Positions 6,081 to 49,249 are shown, numbered from the stretch's first letter. The stretch: DNA of 64,000 bases from a virus (IMGVR_UViG_3300025446_000004:25757-89756), one strand, 5' to 3'. Notes: generated from the sequence alone by a model not told the origin. Program-made: numbers and translations.

Positions 6081-6123
6081 TAGGTTTTAAGGAGAGTTGT
6101 AATATATTTTTATAGAAAATCCG

Positions 6124-6164
6124 CTTTTTCCCTTTATATTACTACGTAATATAAAGGGAAAAAG
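6124..6164. repeat. perfect 19-bp inverted repeat with 3-nt loop
   Basis: CTTTTTCCCTTTATATTAC-tac-GTAATATAAAGGGAAAAAG. Confidence 0.9.
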
Positions 6165-6199
6165 TAAAAAGAAAGCGAAAGTGGGAAGAGGAGGCGAAC

Positions 6200-6391
6200 A
6201 TGGTGAAACTCTACGTGATACAACTTAAGAAATGGAAACGATGGAACAAAACCATCTGGACCCACGGCAGACATGAATATGGTGGACCGGTTTCTTTACG
6301 GTCCGCCATGAAAGCCTTGACGAAAGCACAAAAAGCATTTCCAAAAAGTGAATATCGAATTGCTGTGTATCGTCCAAGGAAAAAGAAGTGA
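6200..6391 (+). CDS. small basic hypothetical protein
   Basis: RBS GGAGG before ATG. Confidence 0.65.
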   Translation: MVKLYVIQLKKWKRWNKTIWTHGRHEYGGPVSLRSAMKALTKAQKAFPKSEYRIAVYRPRKKK

Positions 6392-6399
6392 AAGCGGGC

Positions 6400-6555
6400 T
6401 TTTCCACCGCAACCGGGAGAACCTAGCGGGGCTTAATGGTCCGGTCATGCAAAGGATGCACCGTTACCTGACCACGTGGAGTAACGGGATAGGGTACGCA
6501 CAGTGTTGCACTGTGCGTGACCCGCATAGGCGGTAAAAATCCGCCCGATGGAAAA
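6400..6555 (+). ncRNA. candidate multibranch ncRNA
   Basis: TTTTCCA/TGGAAAA closing stem enclosing CCGTTAC/GTAACGG, ACGCACAGTG/CACTGTGCGT, GGCGG/CCGCC and smaller hairpins. Confidence 0.55.
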
Positions 6556-6663
6556 CCAAGAGGGTGTAGCTCAGATGGTGAGAGCACCCGACATGTTTCA
6601 GCCTTAAGGTAGACCAAAGGCACGTGCCGGGAGGCCGCAGGTTCGATTCCTGTCACCCCTTGG
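6556..6663 (+). ncRNA. tRNA-like RNA with 45-nt extended anticodon arm (possible intron-containing or pseudo-tRNA)
   Basis: TAGCTCAGATGGTGAGAGC D-arm, GCAGG-TTCGATT-CCTGT T-arm, GGGTG/CACCC acceptor; no 7-nt anticodon loop; no CCA. Confidence 0.7.
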
Positions 6664-6786
6664 ATTTTGATGCCGAGAGACACTTAGTGTAGCGGCATCG
6701 GGAAACGTCTCTTGTTTGACTAGGGGAGACCATGGGCGACGTTTTGGAGAGAGTATCTTGGGTTTTGGCCGTCCACCAAAAGTTTT

Positions 6787-6861
6787 CGCGGGGTAGCTCA
6801 GTCCGGTAAGAGCGAAAGATTCATAATCTTTAGGCCACAGGTTCAAATCCTGTCCCCGCAA
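6787..6861 (+). tRNA. tRNA with CAU anticodon (Met/fMet-like)
   Basis: CGCGGGG...AAAGA-TTCATAA-TCTTT...ACAGG-TTCAAAT-CCTGT-CCCCGCA-A; C1xA72 mismatch; CCA not encoded. Confidence 0.9.
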
Positions 6862-6872
6862 CATTGGTTGCT

Positions 6873-7274
6873 ATGAACGAAAAACGTAGAGAGTATATGA
6901 AAATATATCACCACGAGTGGTATATTAATACCATGGTGAAACGAAGAGAACAGTGGTTTGTAGAAAATGGCCCATGTGTGGATTGTGGTAGAAATATAAA
7001 TCTTGAAGTTGATCATATAGACCCATCCACCAAAATAAGTCACTGTGTTTGGAGTTGGTCAGAAAAGCGACGCAAAGAAGAATTAGAAAAATGTGTTGTA
7101 CGCTGTAACGAATGTCATAAAATAAAAACAGCATCGGAGATTAGGGCAAAACTTTCTCGTCCCCCTGTACACGGAACAAGTTCAGGGTATATACACCACA
7201 AGTGTCGTTGTCATTTATGCAAGGATTTCCATAAAAATTATAGACATTCCTACTATTTACAAAGTGGTAAATAG
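6873..7274 (+). CDS. HNH endonuclease
   Basis: CVDCG...LEVDHIDP...CVVRCNECH; C-terminal HGTxSGY-x4-CRCxxC; directly after the tRNA. Confidence 0.85.
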   Translation: MNEKRREYMKIYHHEWYINTMVKRREQWFVENGPCVDCGRNINLEVDHIDPSTKISHCVWSWSEKRRKEELEKCVVRCNECHKIKTASEIRAKLSRPPVHGTSSGYIHHKCRCHLCKDFHKNYRHSYYLQSGK

Positions 7275-7279
7275 TTTTT

Positions 7280-7846
7280 ATGAATCAAACTCATTTCACG
7301 GCTGATGAGCATATCGGTCACAAAAATATAATTATTTACTGCAACCGCCCCTTTGCGGACATTCGTGAGATGCGCGATGAGATGATCCGTCGCCATAACG
7401 AAGTTGTCTCGGATGGTGATATAGTATATCATATCGGTGATATGTTTTGGCGTTTCAACAAGACAAAGGAAGTTTTAGACTACCTCTATTCACTCAACGG
7501 CACTCACCGATATGTTCTCGGGAACCATGAGGAAGCCATTCGAGACCTTTTCAATAAATATCCAGACTGTGAATTCTTTGGTCCCCTATTTGAGCGCGTG
7601 TACTTAAATGGGGTGTCTACGGGAACGCCGGGCGGCATTGTGCTTGACCACTATGCCGGACGCGTGTGGCAGAACAGCAGTCACGGCTCGTGGCAATTAT
7701 TTGGGCATAGTCACGCTGCACTACCTGACATTGGACTTTTACAAATGGATGTAGGAGTTGACGCCCACAACTTCTATCCTGTATCATTGGATCAAGTAAA
7801 AGCGATCATGGCAAAGAAAATGGAGAGCCAGAGTGAGCGACCCTGA
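7280..7846 (+). CDS. calcineurin-like metallophosphoesterase
   Basis: DxH, GD, GNHE, GHSH motifs. Confidence 0.9.
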   Translation: MNQTHFTADEHIGHKNIIIYCNRPFADIREMRDEMIRRHNEVVSDGDIVYHIGDMFWRFNKTKEVLDYLYSLNGTHRYVLGNHEEAIRDLFNKYPDCEFFGPLFERVYLNGVSTGTPGGIVLDHYAGRVWQNSSHGSWQLFGHSHAALPDIGLLQMDVGVDAHNFYPVSLDQVKAIMAKKMESQSERP

Positions 7847-8621
7847 TAAAAATATATCCCACGTCTATGAAAAAGACGAGTCTCCTTGTGAGCACAAATG
7901 GTCGCTCTATCGCCCTAGAAACAGTGGTATTGTAAAACGCTGCCTAAAATGTGGCTACATTCTTATTGAAAAAACCCCATGTCAACATCCCAATGCTTAT
8001 TATATTGGCATCGATCCAGAGGCGCAGGGGCCAACATCTGTTTACCGGTGTGAATCATGTAGAGAAGATTTTAAAAAAGAAGGCTGTTGGCACTTACACC
8101 GCGCAATAGCACGGCGAGAGCTTGAAACCAACGCAGCAGGAGAACAACTATATTTATATTACGAAACATGTTTGGACTGTGGTGAGCGGCTTGTCAAAGC
8201 TCCGGAGCCGTATCAAGATAGTAACTGCACCAGTTGTCACCGCAGGGGCACAGTTCTATTCCATAGATTACCTAGTGGAAAAAACATTGCTCTATGTACG
8301 ATGTGCGGTAAATACACCGACTTGTCAGTAAACTCCCCGGCAGCTACCATTACCACAGCAGCCCAACAATTAAACGAACAAATGACCCGCAATCGGGCAG
8401 CTAGGGATTTACTCAGAGCCAGTTTGCCCACAGATACTTTACAAGAACAAAGAATAATGCAAGGAATTGTAAATACGCAATTAGAAGCTTTAGCTAGAAA
8501 TATGACCCCCGCATTTGCACGTAGCCAACCAAAAACCACGGCTATAGTTGTAAAAAGGGAAACCACAACTCTTGTTGTGTCTACCGACCAAAGACCGCGT
8601 AAGTTCATTTGGGACGCATAG
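7833..8621 (+). CDS. multi-zinc-ribbon hypothetical protein
   Basis: Three CxH...CxxC units plus a CxxC...CxxC unit, helical C-terminus. Confidence 0.65.
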   Translation: MSDPDKNISHVYEKDESPCEHKWSLYRPRNSGIVKRCLKCGYILIEKTPCQHPNAYYIGIDPEAQGPTSVYRCESCREDFKKEGCWHLHRAIARRELETNAAGEQLYLYYETCLDCGERLVKAPEPYQDSNCTSCHRRGTVLFHRLPSGKNIALCTMCGKYTDLSVNSPAATITTAAQQLNEQMTRNRAARDLLRASLPTDTLQEQRIMQGIVNTQLEALARNMTPAFARSQPKTTAIVVKRETTTLVVSTDQRPRKFIWDA

Positions 8622-8629
8622 GGGGAACA

Positions 8630-8897
8630 ATGGAGTATACTCAAAAACTTGATGTACTTTGTACCGAAGTACGAAATGAAGTCACACGTGCTGTATCTCT
8701 TCATGGCGGTATGAAAAGTCAGCACGAGGCTTATGCTGTAATCCTTGAAGAACTTGATGAGTTTTGGGATTTGGTGAAAATCAACCCAAAAAAAACTTCC
8801 ACCCGAGGAACAAGATAAACGGTTGGACGACATGCACGTTGAACTCATCCAAATCGCAGCTATGGCAATCCGAACGATCTATGATCTAGCATTATAG
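8630..8897 (+). pseudogene. MazG-like (NTP pyrophosphohydrolase fold) protein split by a frameshift at an A8 run
   Basis: HEAYAVILEELDEFW in one frame continues as ...MHVELIQIAAMAIR in the +1 frame; removing one A at 8788-8795 restores it. Confidence 0.7.
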
Positions 8898-8905
8898 GAG
8901 GAAGC

Positions 8906-9367
8906 ATGAAATCACAAACCCTGCTGCAATCATTCGTTACATACTGCCAAGACCATCCAGAGGAACGCTTCTGGCAAGCCTTGCGAAACTGGTCAAAGTG
9001 GAGTTTTATTGGTGTATCAAATGACTTGGTGAGTTGGCGAGATACAATGTTTTGGGAGGGCCGATCAAGCTTTATTGAGGGGATCGGACCGGACCAGAAA
9101 ATTAAAAGCCATAGGATTGACGTTCGACACGTCTGCGCTATCTGTGATAAGGTGTATGGAGAACATGAGGCATATAGCAACCGATGCACATATGGCCCAA
9201 AAAGTGCCGTGCTGAATGGAGTGAAATTTCTGGACACTGTGTTTGCTCCCAAGAAGGGGTGGGAACCACCGGCGGATGACTCTAATAAAATGTTAGTACA
9301 AGACAGGCTCCAAAGCAGACGTTATCAGGGTGACGAGCAAGAAAGTTCCGCAGAGAGGTTGAGCTAA
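8906..9367 (+). CDS. hypothetical protein
   Basis: RBS GGAGG; contiguous operon. Confidence 0.65.
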   Translation: MKSQTLLQSFVTYCQDHPEERFWQALRNWSKWSFIGVSNDLVSWRDTMFWEGRSSFIEGIGPDQKIKSHRIDVRHVCAICDKVYGEHEAYSNRCTYGPKSAVLNGVKFLDTVFAPKKGWEPPADDSNKMLVQDRLQSRRYQGDEQESSAERLS

Positions 9368-9597
9368 TGTATATATCTTGTTACCGAATTTACAAACTCC
9401 GTCCTGACATGAAACCTGTTTGCTGTGAATCGTGTCATACGGATGATGAAGAATTTGGTTATGATTTATGTGCAGTTGACGGTCCAGATGGATCAATTGG
9501 TGAACATACTGGTGGAGTTTGTTGTAGAATGTCGATGCAACTTGACGATAAACCCTTAACTGTTGAAGAATGGGAAAAACTGAAAACGGAGGAGTAA
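9367..9597 (+). CDS. small Cys-rich protein
   Basis: TAATG coupling; CCESCH and VCC motifs. Confidence 0.6.
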   Translation: MYISCYRIYKLRPDMKPVCCESCHTDDEEFGYDLCAVDGPDGSIGEHTGGVCCRMSMQLDDKPLTVEEWEKLKTEE

Positions 9598-10073
9598 TGG
9601 CTAAAAAGAAATCATCCAAGCGTCCTATGAAGCCATACTGGACATTCGTGAACGACATTACATACTATCTAAAAGACCACTTCTACCTGCACTCGTGGAC
9701 TCTTCATGTTCTGCAAGTAAAGAACGACAAGACTAGCCAGAACGATACAAATGCCGAAGTGATTGCTAGCATGGGTAGTGATGATACCTATATGGACGCG
9801 ACTCTTAGTTTGTATCCTCTAGCAAAAAGAATGTGGAAAGAAAGGCGATGCAATTCCCTTGGACGTGCCATTGTACATGAATTCTGTCACGTCATAACCG
9901 ATCCTCTGTACAAGATTGCTTGTAACGGGATATGTCGCCGCGAAGGTCCGGGGCTGGAACATACGCGAGAGAATACGACACAACACATATGCAACATTGT
10001 CATGCCCGGCATCGACAAAAAAATCTTCTCTCCATATAAAAATATCAGGAGTAAACGACAATGCATACATTGA
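9597..10073 (+). CDS. HExxH motif protein
   Basis: IVHEFCHV; GGAG RBS; TAATG coupling. Confidence 0.65.
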   Translation: MAKKKSSKRPMKPYWTFVNDITYYLKDHFYLHSWTLHVLQVKNDKTSQNDTNAEVIASMGSDDTYMDATLSLYPLAKRMWKERRCNSLGRAIVHEFCHVITDPLYKIACNGICRREGPGLEHTRENTTQHICNIVMPGIDKKIFSPYKNIRSKRQCIH

Positions 10074-10324
10074 CAACGGACCAGAAAATGACAATTCGTA
10101 GAAATGCACAGCGAGCCATTGACGAATGCGACTATCGGGCATTCAGAAACAGTCTGTTATCCCCAGAGCAGATTGTCGCCCTGCTGGATGAAACAGAGGC
10201 CATAAGGAATCGTCTCTCGACCATCTACCGGGAAGATTCCTATGAAGTCAGGCGACAAGCCAATCCACCTATAATGATCTCAGCCGTATCTGCTAGACGT
10301 AAGGCGATGCAATACCCATTGTAA
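10061..10324 (+). CDS. hypothetical protein
   Basis: AGGAG RBS. Confidence 0.55.
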   Translation: MHTLTTDQKMTIRRNAQRAIDECDYRAFRNSLLSPEQIVALLDETEAIRNRLSTIYREDSYEVRRQANPPIMISAVSARRKAMQYPL

Positions 10325-10370
10325 TAAAAGATAAAAATATATTGGAACTAAAGGACAAGGAGGAACCACA

Positions 10371-10574
10371 ATGGTAAAGTATTCATTCAGACATACACAT
10401 GGTTGGATCGTAAAAGTATTGTGGGAAGAAATCATCCAATCAAGTAACGATATATTGTTATTGAAACAAATGGCAATCGATGGCAACGACAAATTGCAAG
10501 TAGTCATCATCAACATGCAGGACCGCCGGGAGAGGATGCTAAATCTCTACGACTTCTTTACACCAAAGGATTAG
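10371..10574 (+). CDS. hypothetical protein
   Basis: AGGAGG RBS; last gene before the terminator. Confidence 0.55.
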   Translation: MVKYSFRHTHGWIVKVLWEEIIQSSNDILLLKQMAIDGNDKLQVVIINMQDRRERMLNLYDFFTPKD

Positions 10575-10600
10575 TTCAAGAAGTGCCATTTGAAATAACT

Positions 10601-10639
10601 CCTGCACAATAACTCGCCCAAAGTTATCGTGCAGGTTTT
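10601..10639 (+). terminator. intrinsic terminator
   Basis: CCTGCACAATAACT/AGTTATCGTGCAGG stem followed by TTTT. Confidence 0.65.
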
Positions 10640-10808
10640 GTGTATTCACAAAATTTATATTAGAACACTTCTAATAACATTATATTGAAGTGACCCCCTT
10701 TTCCGCATATCTCCAACCGGCCCCCTGACACCCTTCCAGCCTTGACACAAGCCCTTTATATCCCCATAGGCTTGACACTACCCCGTTAAGACCCCCTTCC
10801 TATACCAA

Positions 10809-10824
10809 TGTTCCACGTGGAACA
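10809..10824. promoter_or_regulatory. parS-type centromere site
   Basis: Perfect palindrome TGTTCCACGTGGAACA resembling the bacterial parS consensus TGTTNCACGTGAAACA; extra half-site GTGAAACA at 10829-10836. Confidence 0.8.
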
Positions 10825-11338
10825 CAGTGTGAAACATTTGATTCCATTGGGAGCGTCTGTGTTTCATGCTGCCATGCCGGGATAGCTGCGCACGCTGTTA
10901 ATTATTACAACGCGCTGGATTAGTGGGGTATCCGATTTTGGCCACACCAGCAAAAGCTGACGAACGCATACCCCTGTGGGGTCTGGCGGCACGGTCGGCC
11001 CGGTACTTCTTAACCACCCTATAACCCCTGTAAAATCTTATACATGCGCCATGTAAACGGTTACAATGTTTCTGGGTTGCAACCTTTTACCGTTGGAATT
11101 CTGCGGCATCCGGTTTGTAACTCGTTTGGTTTTAATGGGATGGTCGCAATGTAAACAAAATCACATAATGTTGACAAATGGTCACAGGTTATCAACTAAT
11201 AAATTAGTTGATGGTTTGGAAACAAGATTGTGTGACGTGGCGCATAGTAAACGACAGGATACGGCCCATTTAATCTTTACATCCGTTCCCCTATTGAACT
11301 CGGTCCGTTCCGGGGTTCGCATCCGGCCCGGTTCTATT

Positions 11339-12621
11339 GCGGCCCGTTGCCGGTGTTCCTATAGTTGCTTGTGTCGATGTTCCCCGGCCCGTTTGGAGTC
11401 AACATCTGGCGGCCCGGTCGCCGGTGTTCTCGGTTGTCATGCTGCTACGTTGACCGGTTTGATTAGTTTGACCAGCGTCCCATTGCCGGGGTTATATGGT
11501 CTCAAGGTTCTATGGGGGGGTCACTGTCAATTGCCCGGCTTGGACCATTGCCGATAAAAATATAGTGGAACTCGCACAGGGCGATTTAAGCGGTTCGGAT
11601 CATTGCCGGGGTAATTCCCCATACCTGTGGTTAATACGGGCGCAGAGTGGCCCGGTTCTATTGCGGCCCGGTCGCCGGTTGCATGGCGGCCCGGTTGCTA
11701 TGCTGGCATTGACCGGCAGCCCCTTGGTTCGGGGTTACTAGGGTTCTATGGTTAAGGTATAAGGTCGAAGTCAATTGCTCGGCTCGGCCCGATCCGTTGC
11801 CGATAAAAATATATTGAAACTAACGCAACGTGATTTTACCGGCGGCCCGGTTCCACGGTTGACCAATTGACCGATTGACCGGCGGCCCATATCAGGCGGC
11901 CCGGTTGCCGGATCATTGCCGGATTACTGCGGCCCGTTACGCTCGCGGTTGTCGGTTTAATCTGGCGGCCCATTGCCGGGGTTGTTAGGTATAAGGGAAC
12001 GTGAGCTAAACGGGCCGGGCCGGATCATTCCCGATAACTTTATATCGTAACTCACTGCAAGGCGATTTAAACGACCTGTACCGTTGCCGGGGATCATTCC
12101 ATACTGGCGGCCCATTGAACGCATGGCGGCCCGGTTCTGATCACTGGCGGCCCGTTGTAATTGGCGGCCCGGTTCCTGGGTTGCGTTATCGGTTGCTGAT
12201 CATTTGGAGCAACCGGCGGCCCGTGGTTCTAATATTTTTTTCGTGGAATTCAACCGCTAGCACGTACAATGCCAAACGGCCCAATGTACTGTGAAAATTC
12301 CGAACGAAAGTAATACCGCTAAAATATGGCTCGGCGGCCCGGTTCGCATTGTAATGTTATAAATAAATCGCTTTACTTGCGGTTTTGTAAACGATTACAT
12401 TTCAGCCAATTAGTAAAGCGATTTACTAGCGGCTCTGTATGTCCTTGATTCTATTAACTAAATCGCTTTACAATCGCTTGCAAGCTAAATCAATTTACCT
12501 TGCCCGGTGTTGATCCGATTTTGAAAAATGAGGTGACCGGTCAACTCACGGCCCGGCGGCCCGTCTAGCGCGAAATACAGTTTCCCATATCAGGCGAATA
12601 TTAAGAGAATATTTGCGGCCC
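11339..12621 (+). repeat. non-coding region with same-strand GGCGGCCC octamers and degenerate ~240-bp units
   Basis: 13 GGCGGCCC plus 4 TGCGGCCC counted by eye; CCGATAA...AACT...GATTT block at 11551, 11800, 12031. Confidence 0.85.
12363..12498. promoter_or_regulatory. cluster of LacI/GalR-family-like operators
   Basis: ATAAATCGCTTTAC, TGTAAACGATTACA, TAGTAAAGCGATTTACTA, CTAAATCGCTTTAC, CTAAATCAATTTAC. Confidence 0.6.
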
Positions 12622-12731
12622 ACAGTTGGCCTGCGACTCGTATTTTGCTATTACTTTAGTTTTCTTCAATTCTTTTATTGTGTTGTAATTTTGTTCGAGC
12701 TAGCCGCATAATCAAGGGGAAAGGGGAAAAA

Positions 12732-12929
12732 ATGGAAACATACTTCATTGTCATGGCCCTGTTAGCAACCGTGGTTCTAATGTTGGCCGGTCTTGTATGG
12801 CTCAATCATTGTCACCATAAAGCAACCATGATCTGTTTACTCATGCTCGTGTGTTGCTTTTTTCCGCCATTCCTTATCGTGGCTATTTTGATCGTGATGT
12901 GCGGTCAAGGAAAGGGGGAACCCCAATGA
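12732..12929 (+). CDS. small two-TM membrane protein
   Basis: Two hydrophobic stretches; AAGGGG RBS. Confidence 0.65.
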   Translation: METYFIVMALLATVVLMLAGLVWLNHCHHKATMICLLMLVCCFFPPFLIVAILIVMCGQGKGEPQ

Positions 12930-13216
12930 TGTACAAAGTGAACCTCAAGGGTTACAACGGCAACCGCAATAAATCAGTTCTGGTGTTAGCTCCCGATAAA
13001 AATGCAGCGATTAGCATCGCCTTACACGAGTCTGGTTTTTTCAGTGTCGAATCCGTTCAACCGGAACCGGTCGAATTTGGTTTTGACTATAAGCATCAAG
13101 CTTGGGTCCGAAACAACCGATACGTTGGATGCGGCCACACGAACCGGCCCACGTGCGGTTGCTTTGGCTCACTTCATGCCGGGGAACCGGTTCGGGCCGA
13201 TGCGGAGTTTAAGTAA
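12926..13216 (+). CDS. hypothetical protein with C-terminal CGH..CGC motif
   Basis: ATGA overlap; GGGGG RBS. Confidence 0.6.
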   Translation: MMYKVNLKGYNGNRNKSVLVLAPDKNAAISIALHESGFFSVESVQPEPVEFGFDYKHQAWVRNNRYVGCGHTNRPTCGCFGSLHAGEPVRADAEFK

Positions 13217-13398
13217 AAATATATGGAAACTGCATTGCACCTTGACAGAATACCGGCAAACGTTTGGCGCGAGTACGTGCAAGCGATACAGCGCACCGGG
13301 TTAACTCATCCGCTCAATGTCGCACTTGACCGGTTGCAGTTTTTATTTTCACTTTCCCCGGTTGACGTGGAAAAATATTTTCAAGAGAGGAGGAGCGC

Positions 13399-13497
13399 AT
13401 GATCCAAATGGTAGAAAGCTTTTTCCTGCTTTACACCGCGGCAGTGAGCGTGGTGTTGATCCTTGGCGCAATAGCTGTCAAGAACTCGGACCGATAA
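13399..13497 (+). CDS. 32-aa single-TM peptide (not in ORF track)
   Basis: GGAGGAG RBS; MIQMVESFFLLYTAAVSVVLILGAIAVKNSDR. Confidence 0.55.
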   Translation: MIQMVESFFLLYTAAVSVVLILGAIAVKNSDR

Positions 13498-13527
13498 CGC
13501 AACACTAACCAGAAAGGAAAAACTCGA

Positions 13528-13773
13528 ATGTTTAATCTTTACAAATTCGTGTTTGTTTCAAAATCGCATGACGGAAAAAGGGCCGAAATACGGCGAGTAA
13601 ACAAGTACACCGGCGCAACGAAAACTTTCCACGGTGTGAAATGCGGAGACGGGTTCCAAATCATTACCGGTTCGCGTGGTTTTTTTGACAACGGAAAAAC
13701 GGTAACACTTCCGGTTTACACCTTGCTTAAGGCGAGCGAAATTGAATCGTCCCCGGCAACCGAAACGTTGTAA
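13528..13773 (+). CDS. hypothetical protein
   Basis: AAAGGA RBS in a shared leader motif. Confidence 0.65.
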   Translation: MFNLYKFVFVSKSHDGKRAEIRRVNKYTGATKTFHGVKCGDGFQIITGSRGFFDNGKTVTLPVYTLLKASEIESSPATETL

Positions 13774-13968
13774 TAACATTTTCAAGAAAGTGTATCAAAG
13801 CAATGCAAAGTTTAGTTATTGGACGTGCCAGCGATTGTGACTGTAACTTGTGCCGTGGGTATGGCTGGCACATTTTCGCACCTTGGACAGTCCGAATGTG
13901 GCATAAGGTTTCCCGATTTTTCATTGAGAGTTATCAACAACATTTCAACCAGAAACGAGGATGAAAAA

Positions 13969-14184
13969 ATGATTGTCACGGAAACAATATCCTATAGGGT
14001 CTCAGGTATAGGGAAAACGTGGGAGGGGTTTAACATCACTTTTTCTCGTGAGTTTGACTATTTTCCGAGTTTGGATAATGTTCTCAAAACAACCGGAGAC
14101 TTTGAGACAATTGATCATATTAAGGTGCATTGCGTGCACACTGTAACGTGTGAAGAAACCACTAAGTGTGCATTGGCTTTGTAA
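13969..14184 (+). CDS. hypothetical protein
   Basis: GAGGA RBS before ATG 13969. Confidence 0.6.
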   Translation: MIVTETISYRVSGIGKTWEGFNITFSREFDYFPSLDNVLKTTGDFETIDHIKVHCVHTVTCEETTKCALAL

Positions 14185-14221
14185 ATATTATGAATTCAAC
14201 CCGAAACGAGGATTTTGACCT

Positions 14222-15772
14222 ATGGATTTTGTAACGCAATACCGGGCGGCCCGGCGAGTATCAACACCGCTGCTAGTCGTCCGCACATTTGACAGTAATT
14301 CAACCATCCGAACGATACGCGCAACTATCGGGGAAAAAATTGAGGATGTTGCGCTTATTCGTTGGGATATTTGCCACGGTTGCGAACCATTAACCAAACG
14401 GGCCGGGATCGAATTAAACGAAATGCTAGCGGGGGAAGAACCCGATATTACCCTGTCACTAGAAAACACTTTGAGGCTAGCAGAAAAACAGGCACACTCT
14501 GACCAGTCAACCATGGTCACATTGTTTATTTGTAACGCTCATTTGTTCTGGCGTGATAATCCGCAAGTGATTCAAGGAATTTGGAATTTGCGCGATCTTT
14601 ACAAGTCAAACGCTAACATGCTGGTGTTACTTACTTCCCCCGGTCAAACGGTACCGGCAGAATTGTCGAACGATGTTCTTGTGTTAGATGAACCGCTCCC
14701 CACACGTTCCGAACTCGGAAAAATCATTACTGATACTTTCCACTTTGCAAAATGGACTGCCCCAACTGGTGACCCACTAGAGCGGGCAGTTGATGCATTA
14801 GTGGGAGTGCCGGCTTTCGCAGCAGAGCAAAGTACCGCGATGAGTCTTGAAAGCAAAACTCAAGATTTAAATCTAAGCTCACTGTGGCAACACAAGCGAA
14901 CTATTATTGCTCAGACTCCGGGGTTATCGTTATTTGACGGCGACGATACGCTTGACAACATCGGAGGATTGGACAGTATCAAGTCATTCATTAGTTGTTT
15001 AATGAATGGGAAGCTTCCCCCGGCAGTGATCCTGTTTTCAGATGAAATTGAAAAAGGGTATGCCGGTACCGGAACCGATTTGAGCGGCACTAAAACGGAA
15101 TTGACCGGCGGCACACTCACATGGACTGAGGAAAAAGGAATTGACGGTATCCTATTACTTGGAGTACCCGGTGTGGGAAAATCGGCAATTATTAAGGCCA
15201 TGGGTGGAACGTACAATCGGCCCGTTATCGGGTTCGATGTTGGAGCAATGCAGGGTTCGCTCGTGGGTCAATCAGGCGCAAACTTCCGCACTGCTACAAA
15301 AACGGTTGACGCAATTTCGGACGGAAAAATCCTGTGGGTCGCAACATGTAACAGTGTTAATGCACTGCCTCCGGAGTTACGCTCACGATTCAAATTAGGC
15401 ACTTTCTTTTTTGATGTTCCAACTGAAACGGAACGGGCCGCGATTTGGAACATATACCGGGCAAAGTATGAAATACCGACGAATGATCCTACTCCGGATT
15501 GTACGGGGTGGACAGGCCGCGAAATTCGAGAGTGTGCATATAAGGCATACAGGTTTGGTATCACACTCAAGGAGGCGGCCCGGTACGTTGTTCCGGTAAC
15601 CATTTCGAGTAAAGAACAAATTCAAGGCTTGAGGCTAGCAAGCTCTGGGAAGTATCTTTCGGCTAGTTACCCCGGTCTGTTCAATTGCCGGGGAGAGTTA
15701 CCAGCAGCGAACATTGCAACCGTACCGGTTCTCCGTGCGGCCCGGTCACTCCAATTTGATGAGGAAAGGTAA
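14222..15772 (+). CDS. Ycf46-like AAA+ ATPase with rearranged motif order
   Basis: IGGLDSIK, VILFSDEIEK (Walker B) before GVPGVGKS (Walker A), GSLVGQS, ATCN..ALPPELRSRF, GWTGREI. Confidence 0.9.
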   Translation: MDFVTQYRAARRVSTPLLVVRTFDSNSTIRTIRATIGEKIEDVALIRWDICHGCEPLTKRAGIELNEMLAGEEPDITLSLENTLRLAEKQAHSDQSTMVTLFICNAHLFWRDNPQVIQGIWNLRDLYKSNANMLVLLTSPGQTVPAELSNDVLVLDEPLPTRSELGKIITDTFHFAKWTAPTGDPLERAVDALVGVPAFAAEQSTAMSLESKTQDLNLSSLWQHKRTIIAQTPGLSLFDGDDTLDNIGGLDSIKSFISCLMNGKLPPAVILFSDEIEKGYAGTGTDLSGTKTELTGGTLTWTEEKGIDGILLLGVPGVGKSAIIKAMGGTYNRPVIGFDVGAMQGSLVGQSGANFRTATKTVDAISDGKILWVATCNSVNALPPELRSRFKLGTFFFDVPTETERAAIWNIYRAKYEIPTNDPTPDCTGWTGREIRECAYKAYRFGITLKEAARYVVPVTISSKEQIQGLRLASSGKYLSASYPGLFNCRGELPAANIATVPVLRAARSLQFDEER

Positions 15773-15776
15773 ACCG

Positions 15777-16160
15777 ATGAGTGCATATTCTGAATTCCCA
15801 ATGTCCGAGTTTAAAGACTGTAACCTCTTGATCGAGGCAATGGAAAAAATGGGATACAGTCAAATCAGCCTCGACAAAACGAACTATGAATTGAGGCCAA
15901 TGCAACCCGATTTAGTGTTTCGTAAAAATGGCGCATACGCTAGCACGTGGAACGATGTAGGCTTCAAGCGTACCCCGAACGGCACTTATAGTGCTATGTT
16001 CTCGGATTACGCAACCGGCAATACTCAAACATGGGTGCAAAAACTCAAAGGCGAGTACATCGAATGCGGTGTGATTCTCCAAGCCAAGAAAATGGGATTG
16101 CGGCCTGTGGGTCGCACTGAGAAAAATGGTAAGGTAACGCTCGTTTATCAGCGTGCATAA
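15777..16160 (+). CDS. DUF1257 (Ycf35-like) protein
   Basis: MSxYS...L.EA.EKMGY...NDVGFKRxxNGTY...DY; follows the Ycf46-like ATPase. Confidence 0.75.
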   Translation: MSAYSEFPMSEFKDCNLLIEAMEKMGYSQISLDKTNYELRPMQPDLVFRKNGAYASTWNDVGFKRTPNGTYSAMFSDYATGNTQTWVQKLKGEYIECGVILQAKKMGLRPVGRTEKNGKVTLVYQRA

Positions 16161-16195
16161 CGCAAGCGCAACCGAAAGGAAAAGGTAAAAATATC

Positions 16196-16393
16196 ATGGC
16201 GAAAACGAAACTTGTAACCATTACGATTGACAAAGAAGCCGGCGGAGGATTCACATGCGATACAACCGGTTTCGAGGGCAAAGGGTGTGCCGATATTCAC
16301 AGGATGTTTGAGTCTATTGGCGGCCCCGGCAAAACGGATCATAAGCCAGAGTGGAACCAAATACAACGGTTGAACGTTACGGCGGGGAGGTAA
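16196..16393 (+). CDS. DUF2997-family small protein
   Basis: VTITID...GFEGKGC...KPEW; typical context after DUF1257. Confidence 0.75.
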   Translation: MAKTKLVTITIDKEAGGGFTCDTTGFEGKGCADIHRMFESIGGPGKTDHKPEWNQIQRLNVTAGR

Positions 16394-16396
16394 TCT

Positions 16397-17035
16397 ATGT
16401 TAGTTCATGCACGTATCGATAGCTCACAAGTCAATGGGCCGGGGAACCGGGCAGTGCTATGGTTTCAAGGTTGTTCCCTTAACTGCCTCGGATGTTGGAA
16501 TGAGGGCACTCACCCATTTGATTTTGCTTATCACGTAGAATGGGGAACCATTCAAACATGGTTGATGAATTTACCGGCAGATGTAACAGGGTTGACCCTA
16601 TCAGGGGGAGAGCCATTGCAGCACTCGTTTGACGTGCTAGCAATAGCCGATTTTTTGAGCCTAGTACGGCCCGGTTTTTCCATTGGCTTATTCACGGGGT
16701 ACACTCTGCCAGAGTTACGGGCCGGTCGATTCCAAACTATCGACCAAACCGGAACCCGTTTGATACTCGGGGAACCGGAATTATGGGCCGCGATTGAAAA
16801 CAGAATCGATTTTGCAGTAATGGGCCGGTTTAATCCGGGATTAGTAACCATTAAAAAACCGTTATGCGGTTCCGATAACCAAAGGGTTGTTCTATTCTCG
16901 AACCGCCATAAGCTTGCGGATTTTGACGGGCAAGCTTGCGAGATTACAATTGGGGAACATGAGGGCCAGATGTGCGCAACTATGACGGGGTTCCCCGGTT
17001 CTGAATTCATTACCAGCATCAAAACTGCCCTATAA
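16397..17035 (+). CDS. NrdG-like radical SAM / 4Fe-4S activating protein
   Basis: VNGPGxRAVLWFQGCxxxCxxCxN, GLTLSGGEP, FTGY, GSDNQ. Confidence 0.9.
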   Translation: MLVHARIDSSQVNGPGNRAVLWFQGCSLNCLGCWNEGTHPFDFAYHVEWGTIQTWLMNLPADVTGLTLSGGEPLQHSFDVLAIADFLSLVRPGFSIGLFTGYTLPELRAGRFQTIDQTGTRLILGEPELWAAIENRIDFAVMGRFNPGLVTIKKPLCGSDNQRVVLFSNRHKLADFDGQACEITIGEHEGQMCATMTGFPGSEFITSIKTAL

Positions 17036-17062
17036 CGGGGTAACGAAAAGGAAGGTTAGAAC

Positions 17063-17992
17063 ATGGCTGAAAGCAACATTCAGACAATAACATTCAACGA
17101 TGTAAGCGGGTTATCATCTCAAGTGATGTTTTTACAATTGCGGGCCGGTTTACTCGGGAACTCTCGAAAAATGGGAGGCGATATTTTCAACACTCCGGGA
17201 ACCGATGTTGCATGGTTATCCGCAAACAAAAAACTCCTTGAGTCACCGCAATTGGACGCGATACGCAAAGCAGACATGCGCATACGTCAGTGGTTATATA
17301 ACTCAAAGGGACCAGCGTTACCTTGCAGCTTTGATGCGTTTACAATTCCTAATGGTTCCGTTGTTTCAGTACGGAACAAGCTTGAGGAATTTAAAACGGA
17401 ACGGGCCGGGTTGGTTGATGAATTCATGGCGGTGTACGTGGAACAATCAAGGGAAGCAAGGGAAAAACTCGGCCCGCAATGGAATCCACACGAGTACTTG
17501 ACCCCCGAACGTGTTCGAGCGAAATTTTACTTTGAGTATTCCTTTTATGGTTTCGGAGTCTCCGAAACACTTAAAGAAATTTCGCAAGAACTCTACGATG
17601 AACAAAAAAACAAAATCGAATCGGATTTTCGCAATGCAGCGGACGAGATCACCGCAGTGATGCGGGAAACTGCTTTCGGGTTACTGCAAAACTTGCAAGA
17701 ACAATTGACCCCGGACGATACCACGGGCAAAGCTAAAAAACTTCATCCGGCGGCCCTTGCGAACGTTAAAAACTTTCTTGAAAGTTTCAGCATCAAGAAT
17801 GTTACAAATGACAATGAACTCTCAAACATTCTCGCGCAAGTGAAAACACTGGTGACCGGGGTCGATACAAAAACCATTAAGGCCAGCGAGTCATTTAAAA
17901 CAAACATGCGCGATAAACTCGCAGAGATTACCGGGAAACTTTCGACCATGGTCGAGGAAAAATCGGGCCGCAAGTTTCTATTCGATGAGTGA
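17063..17992 (+). CDS. DUF3150-like helical protein
   Basis: Overall pattern (KKLL...ALP...F...Y...Y.TPERVRAKF.F) and neighbourhood. Confidence 0.55.
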   Translation: MAESNIQTITFNDVSGLSSQVMFLQLRAGLLGNSRKMGGDIFNTPGTDVAWLSANKKLLESPQLDAIRKADMRIRQWLYNSKGPALPCSFDAFTIPNGSVVSVRNKLEEFKTERAGLVDEFMAVYVEQSREAREKLGPQWNPHEYLTPERVRAKFYFEYSFYGFGVSETLKEISQELYDEQKNKIESDFRNAADEITAVMRETAFGLLQNLQEQLTPDDTTGKAKKLHPAALANVKNFLESFSIKNVTNDNELSNILAQVKTLVTGVDTKTIKASESFKTNMRDKLAEITGKLSTMVEEKSGRKFLFDE

Positions 17993-18058
17993 CAGAACCG
18001 GGCCGGGCAACCGGCCCACGGTTCCTTAACACGTTTTTTCAAGAAAGGAAAAAACCAA

Positions 18059-18724
18059 ATGATTGGAATTACGAAAACTGAACTACAAACCCTGTTTGAT
18101 GCGATCAAAATTCAAGACAAATTTGACCGCAAAGAGTTTGTGCATCTTCTTGTATTGTGCCGTTTGGCGATGCGAACCGGAACAGAAAAGCAATTGTTCG
18201 CAGCAGTCGAAGACGTAAACTGGGAACTCGGAATCGAGCAATCGGAACCGGCGCCCCCGGAACATGATCCACTCGAAAACATGATCGGGAATACGTTACG
18301 TGACTATCGGGCCGCCGGTTTACCTAATCCGGTTGAGCCAAGAATCCACGAGGTAACCCCGGCAGTACCGGACCCAGCTCCGGAACCTGTGCCAGCTTCG
18401 GAACCCGATCTCAATCCCGCAATCACGGAAGCTTTGAACAGTATGCGGGGAGAGTCGATCACCCTAGCAGATGGTATCGCCGTTTCGTTTCTTGGAACCG
18501 GCCCGATTCCTCTTGGGGTTGCATTGGACGTGGAACCGCGCATTGAACAATCGGCAAACTATCCTCGCATTATGCGCCGTTTACAAATCGCGCAAGAATT
18601 ACTCTCAGGTTACTGTCACCAGTACCGCGAAACCGGAACTTTTACTCCGGAATATGTCGGGCAAACGTTCCGGGAAAAATGTATTGCAATTCTGCGTTAT
18701 GTAGTCAACTTGCTAAAAAACTAG
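18059..18724 (+). CDS. hypothetical protein with Pro/Glu-rich linker
   Basis: AAAGGA RBS; last gene of the block. Confidence 0.65.
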   Translation: MIGITKTELQTLFDAIKIQDKFDRKEFVHLLVLCRLAMRTGTEKQLFAAVEDVNWELGIEQSEPAPPEHDPLENMIGNTLRDYRAAGLPNPVEPRIHEVTPAVPDPAPEPVPASEPDLNPAITEALNSMRGESITLADGIAVSFLGTGPIPLGVALDVEPRIEQSANYPRIMRRLQIAQELLSGYCHQYRETGTFTPEYVGQTFREKCIAILRYVVNLLKN

Positions 18725-18819
18725 CCTCGCATTTGACCTATAACGGGCCGATGTGAATACTCCGGGCCAGTACCATGGCAGAAATGCCGGATACTGGCCC
18801 GGTTCTTTTTTGACGGCTC

Positions 18820-19413: not shown

Positions 19414-19566
19414 TTTGGTGGGGTTCGATCTCTTCTAGCAGGAAAAATCCGAGCAAAATCACTTAGGTACTTGATGATTCCGGTCGTCTCTTCTAGTAAT
19501 AAAACTTTCGCGGAATTCTCTTAGGTACTTAGGTAATTTGATTTTACAAGGTGTTGCTTTTTTAGC

Positions 19567-19595
19567 TTGACGTGTTTTTAGGGGCATGATACTTT
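19567..19595 (+). promoter_or_regulatory. sigma70-type promoter
   Basis: TTGACG-17nt-TACTTT with TG. Confidence 0.55.
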
Positions 19596-19651
19596 AGGCT
19601 TGACCCGCAGAGTGGAAACATGAAACGGGATTATTAAATGGGATGGTCACC

Positions 19652-20618: not shown

Positions 20619-20651
20619 TTACTTTGGTGACGAGACGTTTTGTTTTGGTAC

Positions 20652-40650: not shown

Positions 40651-40651
40651 A

Positions 40652-46302: not shown

Positions 46303-46501
46303 AGCAAAGAAAACGTGGCACGTAGTGGAATGTGGAGAACATTCTAATGACCTACGAGCCGCATTACAGGGCATTGAAAATCAAGGGGGAGAAGTTTTTG
46401 CTGTTCACCAAAGTAGCATTCTCGCTTATGGCGCATTTGGGTATAAGATTATATACTATACGACTGTCGAACAAAGTGTTATCAAAGGGTTTGAGGTTTA
46501 A
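46286..46501 (+). CDS. hypothetical protein
   Basis: AGGAG RBS. Confidence 0.55.
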   Translation: MAMKYEAKKTWHVVECGEHSNDLRAALQGIENQGGEVFAVHQSSILAYGAFGYKIIYYTTVEQSVIKGFEV

Positions 46502-46504
46502 CAC

Positions 46505-46726
46505 ATGTTAAGTTTTCGCAATGTAGCAACATCACCGTCCAGAAAAACAAAAATTTGGTCAGTATATTGTGCAAATTTATATCTTGGGGAAATCAAATGG
46601 TATGCCCCATGGAGACAATATTGTTTTGCTCCAATTCCCTATTCATTATTCGACCATTCATGTCTAATGGAACTTGCTGAGTTTTGTAACGACAACACAA
46701 AAAATCACAGGAAACAAAATGGCTAA
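46505..46726 (+). CDS. conserved small phage protein
   Basis: KTKIW...[16 protein letters not shown]...F...CL. Confidence 0.7.
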
Positions 46727-47822
46727 AACATCGCTACAAGATTTAACTGAAATAGTTGGACGGGTGCAAGCTGCCCAAACTGCCGTCAATGAAGTTGTCG
46801 CTAAAGTTTCCTCTGTCCCAAAGGATAAGGTCGCTGCGCTTAAGGCAGTCGAATTGGCATTGGACAAGCAGTTCAATACGACTCACTCTCTTATTCGCCT
46901 TGGCAGCCGTGTGGGTGTCAAAATGCCCCACATTGCCACGGGTATTATTTCGTTAGACAATGAGGTATTTGGTATAGGTGGTGTGCCGCGAGGCCGTGTA
47001 ATCGAAGTCTATGGCCCTGAATCCGCCGGTAAAACGACCGTGACATTAGAAATCATCGGGGCGGAACAAAAGAATGGCGGCCTGTGCGCTTTTGTAGACG
47101 CTGAGCACGCTCTCGATCCGAATTACGCGCACCAGCTTGGGGTAGACGTTGACAATCTATGGGTCTCACAACCGGACAACGGTGAGCAAGCCTTGGAGAC
47201 TGTAGCCGCTCTTATCGAGTCTCGGGCTGTAACCTTAATTGTTGTGGACTCTGTAGCTGCTCTTGTACCACAGGCTGAGCTTGACGGGGAAATGGGTGAT
47301 AGCCACATGGGATTGCAAGCCCGGCTAATGTCCCAAGCAATGCGTAAGCTTGTGGGTATTGCCGCTGTAAACGGGGTGACGGTAATCTTTATCAACCAAC
47401 TTCGTGAGAAGATCGGTGTTATGTTCGGCAATCCTGAGACAACTACCGGAGGCCGGGCGCTCAAATTCTATTCAAGTGTGAGGCTCGATGTGCGCCGGGC
47501 ACCGGAGGGAACCATCAAGGTTGGAGATAAAATTATAGGACACAAACTCAGAATTAAGGCTGCCAAGAACAAAGTAGCCACTCCATTCCGTGAAACCATC
47601 GTGAACTTGATCTATGGAGTCGGCATTGACCGCATAGCTGATCTTGTCAATGTCGGAGTAGACCTTGGTGTAATCGAAAAGAGCGGTTCGTGGTACAGCT
47701 ACAAAGGGGAGAGATTGGGTCAGGGTATTGAGAAGATCAAGGATAACCTAAACCCTGAATGGGAAGCCAAACTTAGAACAGACGTACAGGCGGCCATTGA
47801 GGCCAAAGCGGAGAAAAACTAA
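46719..47822 (+). CDS. recA: RecA recombinase
   Basis: [54 protein letters not shown]. Confidence 0.97.
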
Positions 47823-48130
47823 TGTACTATCTTCTATATCGATCATTGATGAAACTGTTGCACAAATTTCATCTACATTACGCCCCACCGGTTTATCCAA
47901 TGGGAGATACTATGTTGTGGTGCAAATGGTGTGGTCTACGATACCAAGTTCCTTCTGGTAAAAATATACTAGAATGGAAATCAACACCAAAGGCTGCCCA
48001 ATGCGCGTTTACGGATTATCCTGCTGTACGGTGCAAAAGAACTACGCTCAATGAGGGCGACTATTGCCCTGAACATACAAAACTTGTATATGCATGGAGG
48101 CGTAAAAATGAGCGACCAAGCGGAACATGA
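47822..48130 (+). CDS. Zn-binding hypothetical protein
   Basis: TAATG coupling; Cys/His clusters. Confidence 0.55.
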   Translation: MYYLLYRSLMKLLHKFHLHYAPPVYPMGDTMLWCKWCGLRYQVPSGKNILEWKSTPKAAQCAFTDYPAVRCKRTTLNEGDYCPEHTKLVYAWRRKNERPSGT

Positions 48131-48467
48131 GACACTAGGAAACAAACCAAGGCCAAATCGCGGACAACAGGCACGCAACCGGCAGAAGCAAACGAGAAAG
48201 GCAAAGACGCATAAAGCTAAATTTATAGCGAAACGCGCTGCGCCGAAGTTTCTCTATCTATGCAAATGCCACGGTCAACGGGCAACCAAGCCGCCATGTG
48301 AACGTGCCAATGACGACATTAGGGAAAACAAGTTCAGCGAATCGCCACTCGGAACATGGAATTGCTCTGTGACACATCAGAAATGCAAAGTAGACCGGTG
48401 TATGCCGGAAAAGCCTAAAGAGGAGTCAAATGAAACTCTTAAAAATGAAAAATCTAACACTGTATAG
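48108..48467 (+). CDS. hypothetical protein
   Basis: GGAGG RBS. Confidence 0.55.
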   Translation: MSDQAEHETLGNKPRPNRGQQARNRQKQTRKAKTHKAKFIAKRAAPKFLYLCKCHGQRATKPPCERANDDIRENKFSESPLGTWNCSVTHQKCKVDRCMPEKPKEESNETLKNEKSNTV

Positions 48468-48631
48468 CCATATAGGGCCAACATGGAATTACGCATTAGG
48501 CTTAGGAATAACTGTGAAATGGGAAAATGTAAAGTATCCCTACTATCCAAATGGATGGATAATATTGAAGTTTGGTTTCAAATCAGTAATGTTTAGTTGG
48601 ATTTTAGAAACGCACCCAAAAGAGGATAAAA

Positions 48632-48898
48632 ATGCAAACAGCGCAAGTTGATGTATTGCTACCAATGAATGTAAACGTTTCCATTGATGATAATGGGACG
48701 GCTATCTATTACAAAGATGGTAACTTAGTGGTTATTGGGGTCGGTCAAGACGTTTGGGATGCCTTGAATGACTTTCGCATTGAATTCGCCGCCAAGGTCC
48801 ATGCACTCGCTAATCCGGTGACGGTCTGTACCACAAGTACCAACACCGGGCTTCCAGTGTGGCCGTGTTCGCCTTACTGCCGCATTCATATGGTGTAA
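48632..48898 (+). CDS. hypothetical protein
   Basis: GAGG RBS; last + strand gene. Confidence 0.55.
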   Translation: MQTAQVDVLLPMNVNVSIDDNGTAIYYKDGNLVVIGVGQDVWDALNDFRIEFAAKVHALANPVTVCTTSTNTGLPVWPCSPYCRIHMV

Positions 48899-48955
48899 CC
48901 TACCCAAAACCTTCTCCAACGCCTTAAATCGCCTCCTAGAGCCTTCTGTAGACAC

Positions 48956-48992
48956 AAAAAGAGACCCGGCTTGCGCCGGGCCTTCTTGTTTT
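48956..48992. terminator. bidirectional terminator between convergent units
   Basis: AAAAA-GAGACCCGGC-ttgc-GCCGGGCCTTC-TTGTTTT. Confidence 0.65.
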
Positions 48993-49249
48993 CGAGTTTG
49001 GTCGGTCTTGCGGGTCTCCCTTGTGACCAGCACCGCACCCACATTAACAGCCGCATGGCCGCCGTCCTTTGGGCGTTTAGACGATCAACCGATAATCTAT
49101 CTTACCTTAAGATATATTTTTATCAAAAGTACCAAAGCAGCGCACACCAAGAGCAGCATCAGCGCGTGGTACTGCGGAGCCATCAAAACCCAGAATTACC
49201 AACTATTAGGAGCAAAGAAAAGTCTGAAAAGGCTCTGCACAAGGCCCCC

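Follow-up and report, generated by a model that had tools for sequence, protein, structure and literature searches.

A short directional signal recurs in the DNA of a soil podovirus, analysed here as a window of 64,000 nucleotides (nt) (IMGVR_UViG_3300025446_000004:25757-89756) taken from a viral contig of 89,756 bp (bases 25757-89756), which is rated as linear and 95% complete. The hallmark of the signal is the 11-mer TAAAAATATAT, found in nine exact copies, one of which makes up the whole spacer of a permuted transfer-messenger RNA (tmRNA) gene. The signal is real, strongly selected and directional, and the view of the original prediction, that it is sequence-specific and not due to chance, is upheld by its enrichment. 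With about even confidence, the motif is interpreted as a phage-specific class of promoters devoid of a -35 element, which also marks the junctions of exchangeable modules. Position, orientation, neighbouring terminators and complementarity with a class of canonical promoters all suggest that the element is linked to transcription, a promoter being the most likely kind.

Occurrence and distribution of the 11-mer

Exact copies of TAAAAATATAT are located on the + strand at 7847, 10332, 11804, 13214, 18848 and 24932, and on the - strand at 6102, 20083 and 49112, all as previously noticed by eye. The same nine copies, and none extra, are found in the entire 89,756-bp contig. In dinucleotide shuffles 0.03 copies are expected, and nine were reached in 0 of 100 shuffles. 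Enrichment over a Markov background has been found at orders 0-5, which predict 0.10-0.25 copies vs the nine observed, in agreement with an earlier rough estimate of well under one; in chains simulated at orders 3 and 5 the maximum was two. Models of orders 6-8 predict 1.0-8.0 copies, figures which are circular because these models are trained on sub-words of the motif itself. Against the strictest background, restricted to non-coding DNA (5,594 nt), four copies are observed vs 0.01-0.04 expected. Shuffles, Markov models up to order 5 and the non-coding background rule out chance or composition as the cause of the recurrence. TAAAAATATAT ranks second by frequency among the 11-mers of the genome. 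Four copies of the ten-base core, also reported earlier, are all real: the one at 11555 (+) ends in ...TATAG, those at 25819 (+), 47959 (+) and 59469/59470 (-) in ...TATAC.

According to rough gene calls and family scans, the + arm of the genome extends from ~1,900 to ~48,900, and encodes the DNA polymerase, tRNAs, many small open reading frames (ORFs), an AAA-ATPase/radical-SAM island and the tmRNA, and further RecA, RNA ligases, a helicase and a primase-helicase. The structural arm, on the - strand, consists of window positions 49,250-64,000 together with the initial 26 kb of the contig. All exact copies of the 11-mer are found in the + early/replication arm or at its far boundary, and none in the remaining ~41 kb. 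The signal had been described as genome-wide and oriented independently of transcription. Exact copies are instead confined to one transcription arm or its end; six of the nine follow the + arm, and 49112(-) follows the neighbouring - arm.

The 11-mer is the core of a longer motif

Alignment of the copies shows that the 11-mer is the core of an asymmetric motif of ~20 nt, fitting the consensus gATAA-www-TATAT-tGrAAC. Outside the 11 bases, gA is usually found before and t-G-r-A-A-C-t after the core; this holds for 6102(-) and, less well, for 20083(-). Sequences flanking dispersed copies are mutually unrelated, and these copies are therefore not recent duplications. The generalised pattern A[TC]AA-N3-4-TATA[TGC]-N3-AA[CT] occurs ten times in this genome vs 0.4 expected, and has been found also in two related metagenome contigs, L034 (one vs 0.0) and L037 (two vs 0.03). 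A family of 14 sites, including the nine exact copies plus 1293, 10648, 11555, 12035 and 51514, has been used for comparison, and 12 of its members are co-oriented with local transcription.

Two hexamers within the motif resemble -10 elements in having A at the second and T at the sixth position, AAAAAT (motif positions 2-7) and TATATt (7-12). No hexamer is shared in the aligned 40 nt upstream of the sites, which lack a conserved -35 element. Folding of the 60 nt preceding the sites is more stable than that of random 60-mers (mean -15.2 vs -10.7 kcal/mol, Mann-Whitney p = 0.002), whereas folding of the 60 nt downstream is not better than random (p = 0.08). A hairpin is found just before the motif at 6102, 10648 and 18848, and is not seen at most other sites.

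Several candidates have been discarded. Site 5100 (aaaaaacttatattgaaac) coincides with the coding start MKKLILKR of ORF 5095, is kept in the relatives, and probably reflects coding conservation. A sigma-28-like GCCGATAA is present at two tandem units, lacks the TAAA -35 box, is absent from other sites, and was taken as a coincidence. The sequence ATTGAAAC, found in some copies, recalls the tail of CRISPR repeats; no Rfam CRISPR family was matched at threshold, and the 20-30 nt upstream are not conserved. The tGGAAC/tGAAAC block resembles a half-site of a parS-like palindrome at 10809; the genome has no ParB_N domain.

Relatives and module junctions

The DNA polymerase shares 51% identity with its counterpart in Tunturiibacter phage Tunturi_3, and 40% with the one in Tunturi_4. 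Tunturi_3 is presented as a podovirus of Acidobacteriota with a genome of 97.6 kb (PMC11924767). The phage analysed here appears to be a Tunturi-3-like podovirus and looks lytic, and the host of such Tunturi_3-related soil podoviruses probably belongs to the Acidobacteriota. Closer relatives (L033, L034, L037, L044; 70-74% protein identity) were identified by scanning metagenome contigs with the polymerase; L037 is syntenic with window positions 3,602-15,600. The same scan of genome contigs gave no match, and neither a 516-amino-acid ATPase nor a tyrosine-recombinase-like ORF, used as queries, retrieved a closer relative of the tmRNA locus from the viral contigs scanned.

Close relatives lack the exact 11-mer, and host elements which keep the overall architecture but differ in the middle part: cccATAAACTTTATATTGAAAC, cccGATAAATTTATATTGAAAT (a tandem duplicate), TAAAATTATATTAGAAC and TATATGGAAAC. 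The TATAT..AAC part of the motif recurs in the closest metagenomic relatives. Since the architecture is kept and the generalised pattern is enriched, the 11-mer is regarded as this genome's version of the A/T-rich core of a ~20-bp signal. The best example is the ortholog of 6102(-), TAAAATTATATtagAACT in L034, L037 and L044, which has the same orientation and adjoins the same hairpin; 19 of 22 motif positions are kept, and both flanks have largely diverged. The expectation that related phages would be informative was right.

More distant genomes are devoid of the motif. No exact copy of TAAAAATATAT was found in Tunturi_3 or Tunturi_4, and none, even allowing one mismatch, in the 44-kb fragment G001. 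The repeated words are different there, as Tunturi_3 features a 13-nt tandem iteron and Tunturi_4 nine canonical promoters of the type AACATCTTGACAC-N-TAnnnT. In IMG/VR the pattern ATAAAAATATATKGRAACT matched 19 contigs, once each; these single-match contigs, uninspected, were taken as chance, and the idea of a motif widespread in IMG/VR was abandoned. The 20-mer at the tmRNA junction had 0 matches in IMG/VR, and literature searches with the motif strings gave nothing related among the matches listed.

Comparison with L037 shows that motif copies bound segments that differ between close relatives. At the position of 13214 only TATATGGAAAC is kept, and 7847 and 10332 have no counterpart. Site 7847 lies ~20 nt beyond the end of L037 homology, at a synteny break, on the left border of a segment that has been replaced. 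A cassette missing in the syntenic L037 is enclosed by sites 10332 and 10648/10675; in this cassette the motif is followed by 28 nt, AAGGAGG, an ATG, a 67-amino-acid ORF, a 15-bp hairpin (10601-10635) and TTTTGTGT. A passive role as recombination junction between modules is supported by these comparisons at two loci, in one relative. A stretch of ~20 bp recurring at gene boundaries would provide microhomology for module exchange, as do the PeSL (promoter-early stem-loops) cassettes of T4-like phages; the motif would then mark cassette swaps between close relatives, and extend the PeSL idea beyond T4-like phages.

The canonical promoters and a probable second class

A canonical class of promoters, cTTGACAA-N13-TGTGnTAnnnT, combines a -35 element with an extended -10, and has about 11 strong members in the genome. 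These are located at 1848, 5428, 5505, 20652, 24749 (in front of the tmRNA), 28961, 31867, 38821 and 41835 on the + strand, and at 1831 and 53333 on the - strand; 1831(-) and 1848(+) form an overlapping divergent pair between the two arms. As this class is clear here, and nine similar promoters are found in Tunturi_4, the hosts read ordinary -35/-10 promoters. No strong canonical member is found from 5,505 to 20,652, where only weaker TTGACG/TTGACT elements occur (7758, 14054, 16923, 19567), and this ~15-kb stretch contains nine of the 14 motif sites. Such complementarity is the main reason for preferring a distinct promoter class over a generic binding site. Moreover, expression of the island genes requires re-initiation past the strong terminator at 10601-10635.

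The ~20-bp signal would accordingly represent a second, -35-independent promoter class of this phage, and the remainder of the genome would depend on the canonical TTGACA / TGTGnTAnnnT promoters. The -10 element of the signal may be its A/T-rich core (AAAAAT or TATATt), transcription plausibly starting ~1-9 nt beyond the 11-mer, near the conserved rAAC. The enzyme involved is presumably the host RNA polymerase, probably redirected by a phage factor. A promoter role would give a little-studied group of soil podoviruses a second transcription class, would make a separately timed module of the 6-25 kb region, which comprises the AAA-ATPase/radical-SAM island and the repeat-rich blocks, and would point to an unrecognised phage factor redirecting host RNA polymerase. 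The main text of the Tunturi paper contains 0 occurrences of the terms 'promoter', 'tmRNA' and 'RNA polymerase' (PMC11924767).

Several observations weigh against a promoter. Gene calls are from our own rough caller, and the family of 14 was selected by us, leaving out pattern matches at 31147, 38440 and 46435(-) as probably coding or fortuitous. Sites 6102(-) and 20083(-), the two exceptions to co-orientation, are conserved-looking and antisense to + arm genes. Only two or three of the 14 sites are directly upstream of a ribosome-binding site and start codon, and most precede non-coding DNA; those found 28-65 nt upstream of an ORF start are 10332, 51514 and 1293. The three ...TATAC copies lie in coding sequence; 25819, 59469 and also 7847, which falls within codons 5-8 of ORF 7833-8621, read K-N-I in the same frame. 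Part of the upstream-folding signal is supplied by the GC-rich repeats of non-coding blocks. Neither sigma factors nor RNA polymerases nor helix-turn-helix regulators were detected in a Pfam scan of 79 + arm ORFs or in PHROG scans, a search of the genome with PF04542 gave no match, and no motif of the DxDGD type was found. A genome search with PF00940 gave no match either, and is uninformative, as the control was positive in no control genome.

The tmRNA spacer

The exact occupation of a permutation spacer is the one unusual feature of the motif. The two-piece tmRNA is encoded on the + strand (24871-25063, the part covered by Rfam; RF04321, 79.2 bits). The 11-mer (24932-24942) is precisely the gap between the CCA of the acceptor piece, ending at 24931, and G24943, the first base of the coding piece (GGGAGCG…); the earlier claim that it is the exact intervening spacer is thus confirmed by Rfam placement. 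Upstream of the gene lies a canonical promoter, TTGACA-18-TAAAGT (24749-24778). Since the flanks are fixed by the acceptor stem, only 11 bases are free to take the motif, and all do. The spacer is A/U-rich in the Rfam consensus, and the odds of a coincidence are therefore ~1 in 2,000 and not 1 in 4 million, still small.

Permuted tmRNA genes have been identified in all four phage lineages examined. Those of Tunturi_3 (a podovirus), Tunturi_4 (a siphovirus) and the L038/L039 lineage score 63-86 bits; the genes map at L010 38172-38396(-), L011 43532-43941(-), L038 14647-14857 and L039 6834-7044. The Tunturi paper reports, in what it says of tRNAs, 'unknown' tRNAs (PMC11924767). Spacers are 25 nt long in Tunturi_3, 32 nt in L038 and ~155 nt in Tunturi_4. 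All are unrelated to the 11-mer, and none holds a word repeated in its own genome, the promoter word of Tunturi_4 included; both facts speak against a promoter in the spacer. Because the spacers of other lineages are unrelated, tmRNA maturation needs no such sequence. A spacer promoter as a general feature of the tmRNAs of these phages is ruled out by the motif-free spacers of three lineages and, judging from them, the spacer motif is peculiar to this genome or to close relatives.

The copy in the spacer would be an internal promoter facing the coding piece. The stronger proposal, that the tmRNA halves are separate primary transcripts, and that the spacer is a phage-specific promoter starting at or next to the mature G, is rather improbable. 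A start directly after TATAT would coincide with the mature 5' end of the coding piece. With sigma-70-like geometry, transcription would start 1-7 nt inside the coding piece, truncating the acceptor stem, which is a further argument against a promoter. If the proposal is true, the coding piece could be made independently of the acceptor piece, e.g. after a switch away from the upstream canonical promoter, and the two-piece tmRNA would result from transcription, not from excision. The spacer copy would be a simple example of a split RNA gene with a regulatory signal exactly at its permutation point.

The tmRNA gene is found 1.2-2 kb downstream of the DNA polymerase, beside tRNAs, in Tunturi_3 and L038; here it is ~20 kb downstream of the polymerase (2417-5098). 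The equivalent spot, 5887-6199, is non-coding, and contains the 6102(-) motif and hairpins. On the - strand at 25163-25173, just past the terminator hairpin of the tmRNA (25133-25156), lies a one-mismatch copy, TAAAAACATAT. On the + strand it corresponds to the T-rich tail of that terminator, and it is probably not a family member.

Alternative interpretations

Readings of the motif as an operator, an RNA-processing signal or a site of DNA transactions are kept alive because no factor has been recognised, some sites are antisense or coding, and the DNA downstream is mostly non-coding. According to the first, the motif is an operator or roadblock for a phage DNA-binding protein, which represses or times the 6-25 kb region, including the coding piece of the tmRNA. 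A specific and asymmetric recognition sequence of ~20 bp, the co-orientation of 12 of the 14 sites with transcription, and the location of sites at gene boundaries and inside a non-coding RNA gene would all fit, as would their clustering in non-coding blocks of regulatory character, where palindromic GTAAATCGMTTTAC repeats are found too. These nearby palindromes, however, are better candidates for operators. Furthermore, no helix-turn-helix or repressor family is found among the 79 + arm ORFs, a TATA-like core rich in A/T is more usual in melting elements than in operators, and three sites are located just past terminator-like hairpins, where little transcription is left to block. On balance an operator is unlikely, though it is the strongest of the alternatives to a promoter.

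It has also been considered that the motif works in RNA, UAAAAAUAUAU being a cleavage or stability site, and that the same nuclease excises the tmRNA spacer. The 11-mer is exactly the piece to be removed from the pre-tmRNA, orientation mostly follows transcription, and three + copies adjoin a stop codon (at a distance of 0 nt for 7847 and of 8 nt for 10332, with overlap for 13214). Yet processing needs no such sequence, as the unrelated spacers of Tunturi_3, L038 and Tunturi_4 indicate, and the match is less surprising given the A/U-rich Rfam consensus. Sites 6102(-) and 20083(-) are on the non-transcribed strand of the + arm, with no - promoter known upstream, and no candidate nuclease of such specificity was found. 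An RNA-level signal is accordingly improbable.

A role in DNA transactions, be it as core site for the recombinase encoded at 25691, strand-specific nick site, or origin element for unwinding or priming, seems equally improbable. Strand-specific nicks are known from T5 or LUZ24-type phages. Two pairs of copies are inverted (6102-/7847+ and 18848+/20083-), some copies are located in iteron-rich non-coding blocks resembling origins, and two sites are at indel junctions. A tyrosine-recombinase-like ORF (25691-26236, +; phrog_216, phrog_1, PF00589 5.8e-23), short at 181 amino acids, is found 749 nt downstream of the tmRNA copy, so that the 750 bp given in the original prediction hold as a distance; a link of this gene to the motif did not emerge. 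A homologue of the recombinase is present in Tunturi_3, a genome without the motif. The recombinase core site fares worst of all readings and is not supported. An arm-6nt-arm pseudo-palindrome had been attributed to several copies, as expected for the site of a dimeric protein or tyrosine recombinase, but the 5-bp arms are complete (5/5) only at the tmRNA junction (24932), where they are provided by CCA and GG of the tmRNA itself. In the eight remaining copies complementarity is 2-4/5 and mostly intrinsic to the word, so that the arms are not shared. The extended motif is moreover asymmetric and directional, and no inversion is seen in L034, L037 and L044, where the orientation of the 6102 ortholog is identical.

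Least probable of all is that the motif has no function of its own, being an A/T-rich junction sequence spread by illegitimate recombination or duplication, matched by chance in the tmRNA spacer: three family members do belong to one tandem duplication (~240-nt units), permuted-tmRNA spacers are generally A/U-rich (an exact match counting A/U only has the odds given above), and the distant G001, Tunturi_3 and Tunturi_4 lack the motif, but the flanks of dispersed copies are unrelated, the 6102 ortholog is preserved amid diverged flanks, and strand bias, restriction to one arm and the conserved downstream AAC block argue for selection.

Individual sites

The 6102-6112 copy (-) is followed by a tacAAC block, and lies 12 nt past a 19-bp hairpin on its own strand. 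This hairpin (6124-6164) is perfect, is flanked by a T run and an A run (-23.5 kcal/mol), is 97% conserved in L034 and L037, and appears terminator-like on the - strand. Downstream of the site are ~200 nt of non-coding sequence with a structure z of -2.2. The copy at 7847-7857 (+) comes directly after the TGA stop of ORF 7280-7846, and has no AAC block. In gaTAAAAATATATtgGAACt the 11-mer (10332-10342, +) is 28 nt before the ATG at 10371, which is provided with the ribosome-binding site AAGGAGG. The variant ACAAAATTTATATTAGAAC (10648-10666, +) is directly past the terminator hairpin 10601-10635 (15-bp stem, T run), and a further variant, at 10675, has L037 7630 as its ortholog.

Sites 11555, 11804 and 12035 head three homologous tandem units of ~240 nt in a 2.1-kb non-coding block. 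The first unit carries a one-mismatch copy, ATAAAAATATAGTGGAAC (11554-11571, +), the second an exact 11-mer (11804-11814, +) in the context gaTAAAAATATATtgAAACt, and the third the variant ATAACTTTATATCGTAAC (12034-12051, +; GATAACTTTATATCGTAAC at 12035), orthologous to the L037 element cccGATAAATTTATATTGAAAT. In the copy at 13214-13224 (+), TAA is the stop codon of ORF 12926-13216, and the last AT, with the following G, makes up the ATG (13223) of a 59-amino-acid ORF. The copy at 18848-18858 (+) is found in a second repeat-rich non-coding block, ~45 nt past a terminator-like hairpin (18786-18803). The copy at 20083-20093 (-) lies in a 92-nt gap between the + ORFs 19849-20067 and 20160-20618, and its downstream block reads aacAAT.

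The last exact copy, 49112-49122 (-), is located in the convergence zone of the two arms. Downstream of it on the - strand, ~125 nt of structured RNA (z = -3.5) end in a bidirectional terminator (48961-48990), and this arrangement looks like a small-RNA gene. Two sites lie outside the region spanned by exact copies. The variant ATAAACTTTATACTAAAAC (1293-1311, +) is 65 nt before ORF 1376-1630, and has ACAAACTTTATATCAAAAC as its L034 ortholog. The one-mismatch copy TAAAAATTTATcaaAACT (51514-51524, -), in a 92-nt gap of the structural arm, is 33 nt before the ATG of the - gene 51137-51481.

The non-coding repeat-rich blocks (10580-12700 and 18725-19640; 7700-9300 in L037) flank the AAA-ATPase/radical-SAM island. 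They contain strand-polar direct repeats (GGCGGCCCGGTT), the near-palindromic GTAAATCGMTTTAC repeats and, at 10809, the parS-like TGTTCCACGTGGAACA; both the GTAAATCGMTTTAC palindromes and the parS-like site are found also in L037. Possible roles of the blocks are those of an origin, a site of partition or a hub of regulation.

Other features of the genomes

A tRNA-like gene of ~101 nt at 6560-6661 (L034 11417-11517, L037 3531-3631), whose anticodon region contains an insert of ~30 nt, matches the Rfam tRNA family at 44-48 bits, and is kept in close relatives. A segment (window 6670-7294) hosting tRNA-Met (6787-6862) and an ORF for an HNH endonuclease (6864-7274) is missing in the syntenic L037, which suggests insertion of a tRNA together with a homing endonuclease. 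The large subunit of the terminase (contig 19475-22438, -; L046 2475-5435) is encoded by an ORF of 986 amino acids. Only residues 579-921 match terminases, residues 247-371 weakly match a PHROG of anaerobic ribonucleotide reductase, and the ORF could carry an insertion or an intein. Four matches to the Twister-P5 ribozyme (48-62 bits; gathering score 37.6) are found within 5 kb in Tunturi_4 (L012 8349-8409, 9934-9991, 12165-12226 and 13092-13149, all on the - strand).

Comparison with known systems

As in the sites of tyrosine recombinases (FimB/FimE, Xer, integrases), a short recombinase gene is nearby, and one perfect 5-6-5 pseudo-palindrome is found, at the tmRNA junction. In contrast to such sites, the palindrome is not common to the copies, the motif is directional, and relatives show no inversion. 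Stoperators, known from mycobacteriophage L5, are asymmetric, oriented with transcription, and repeated genome-wide in short intergenic gaps. The motif resembles them in being asymmetric, repeated and mostly oriented with transcription. It differs in its A/T-rich, TATA-like sequence and in the three sites which follow terminators; the phage looks lytic, and no repressor was detected in it.

Promoters of single-subunit phage RNA polymerases (T7, SP6) are ~20 bp long, asymmetric and highly conserved, with a TATA stretch near the start. The motif is similarly asymmetric, ~20 bp long, highly conserved and endowed with a TATA stretch, and a start right after TATAT would correspond to the mature G of the tmRNA coding piece. 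Unlike T7 and SP6, however, the phage showed no T7-like polymerase in the Pfam scan of 79 ORFs or in the PHROG scans. The T4 late promoter TATAAATA and the extended -10 promoters of Thermus phage P23-45 are -35-independent. The motif resembles both in having an A/T-rich -10-like core, no -35, and canonical early promoters alongside, and TAAAAATA is one base off the T4 late box. It departs from T4 late promoters in that relatives keep TATAT..AAC and not the TAAAAATA part, and in being nearly missing from the structural (late) arm; from both systems, in that no gp55-like, AsiA-like or gp39-like factor was found.

The PeSLs of T4-like phages are described as repeated regulatory motifs at gene boundaries, often beside a stem-loop terminator, with strong sigma-70-like promoters; their cassettes flank genes which one phage has and a close relative does not (PMC2839356, PMC4122927). 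Compared with PeSLs as outlined in these two reports, the motif has no -35 element, is distinct from the canonical class of the phage itself, and adjoins a hairpin at only three or four of the 14 sites. On sequence grounds, the likeness resides in the arrangement of 10332/10648 around the 67-amino-acid ORF, and in the location of 7847 at a synteny break.

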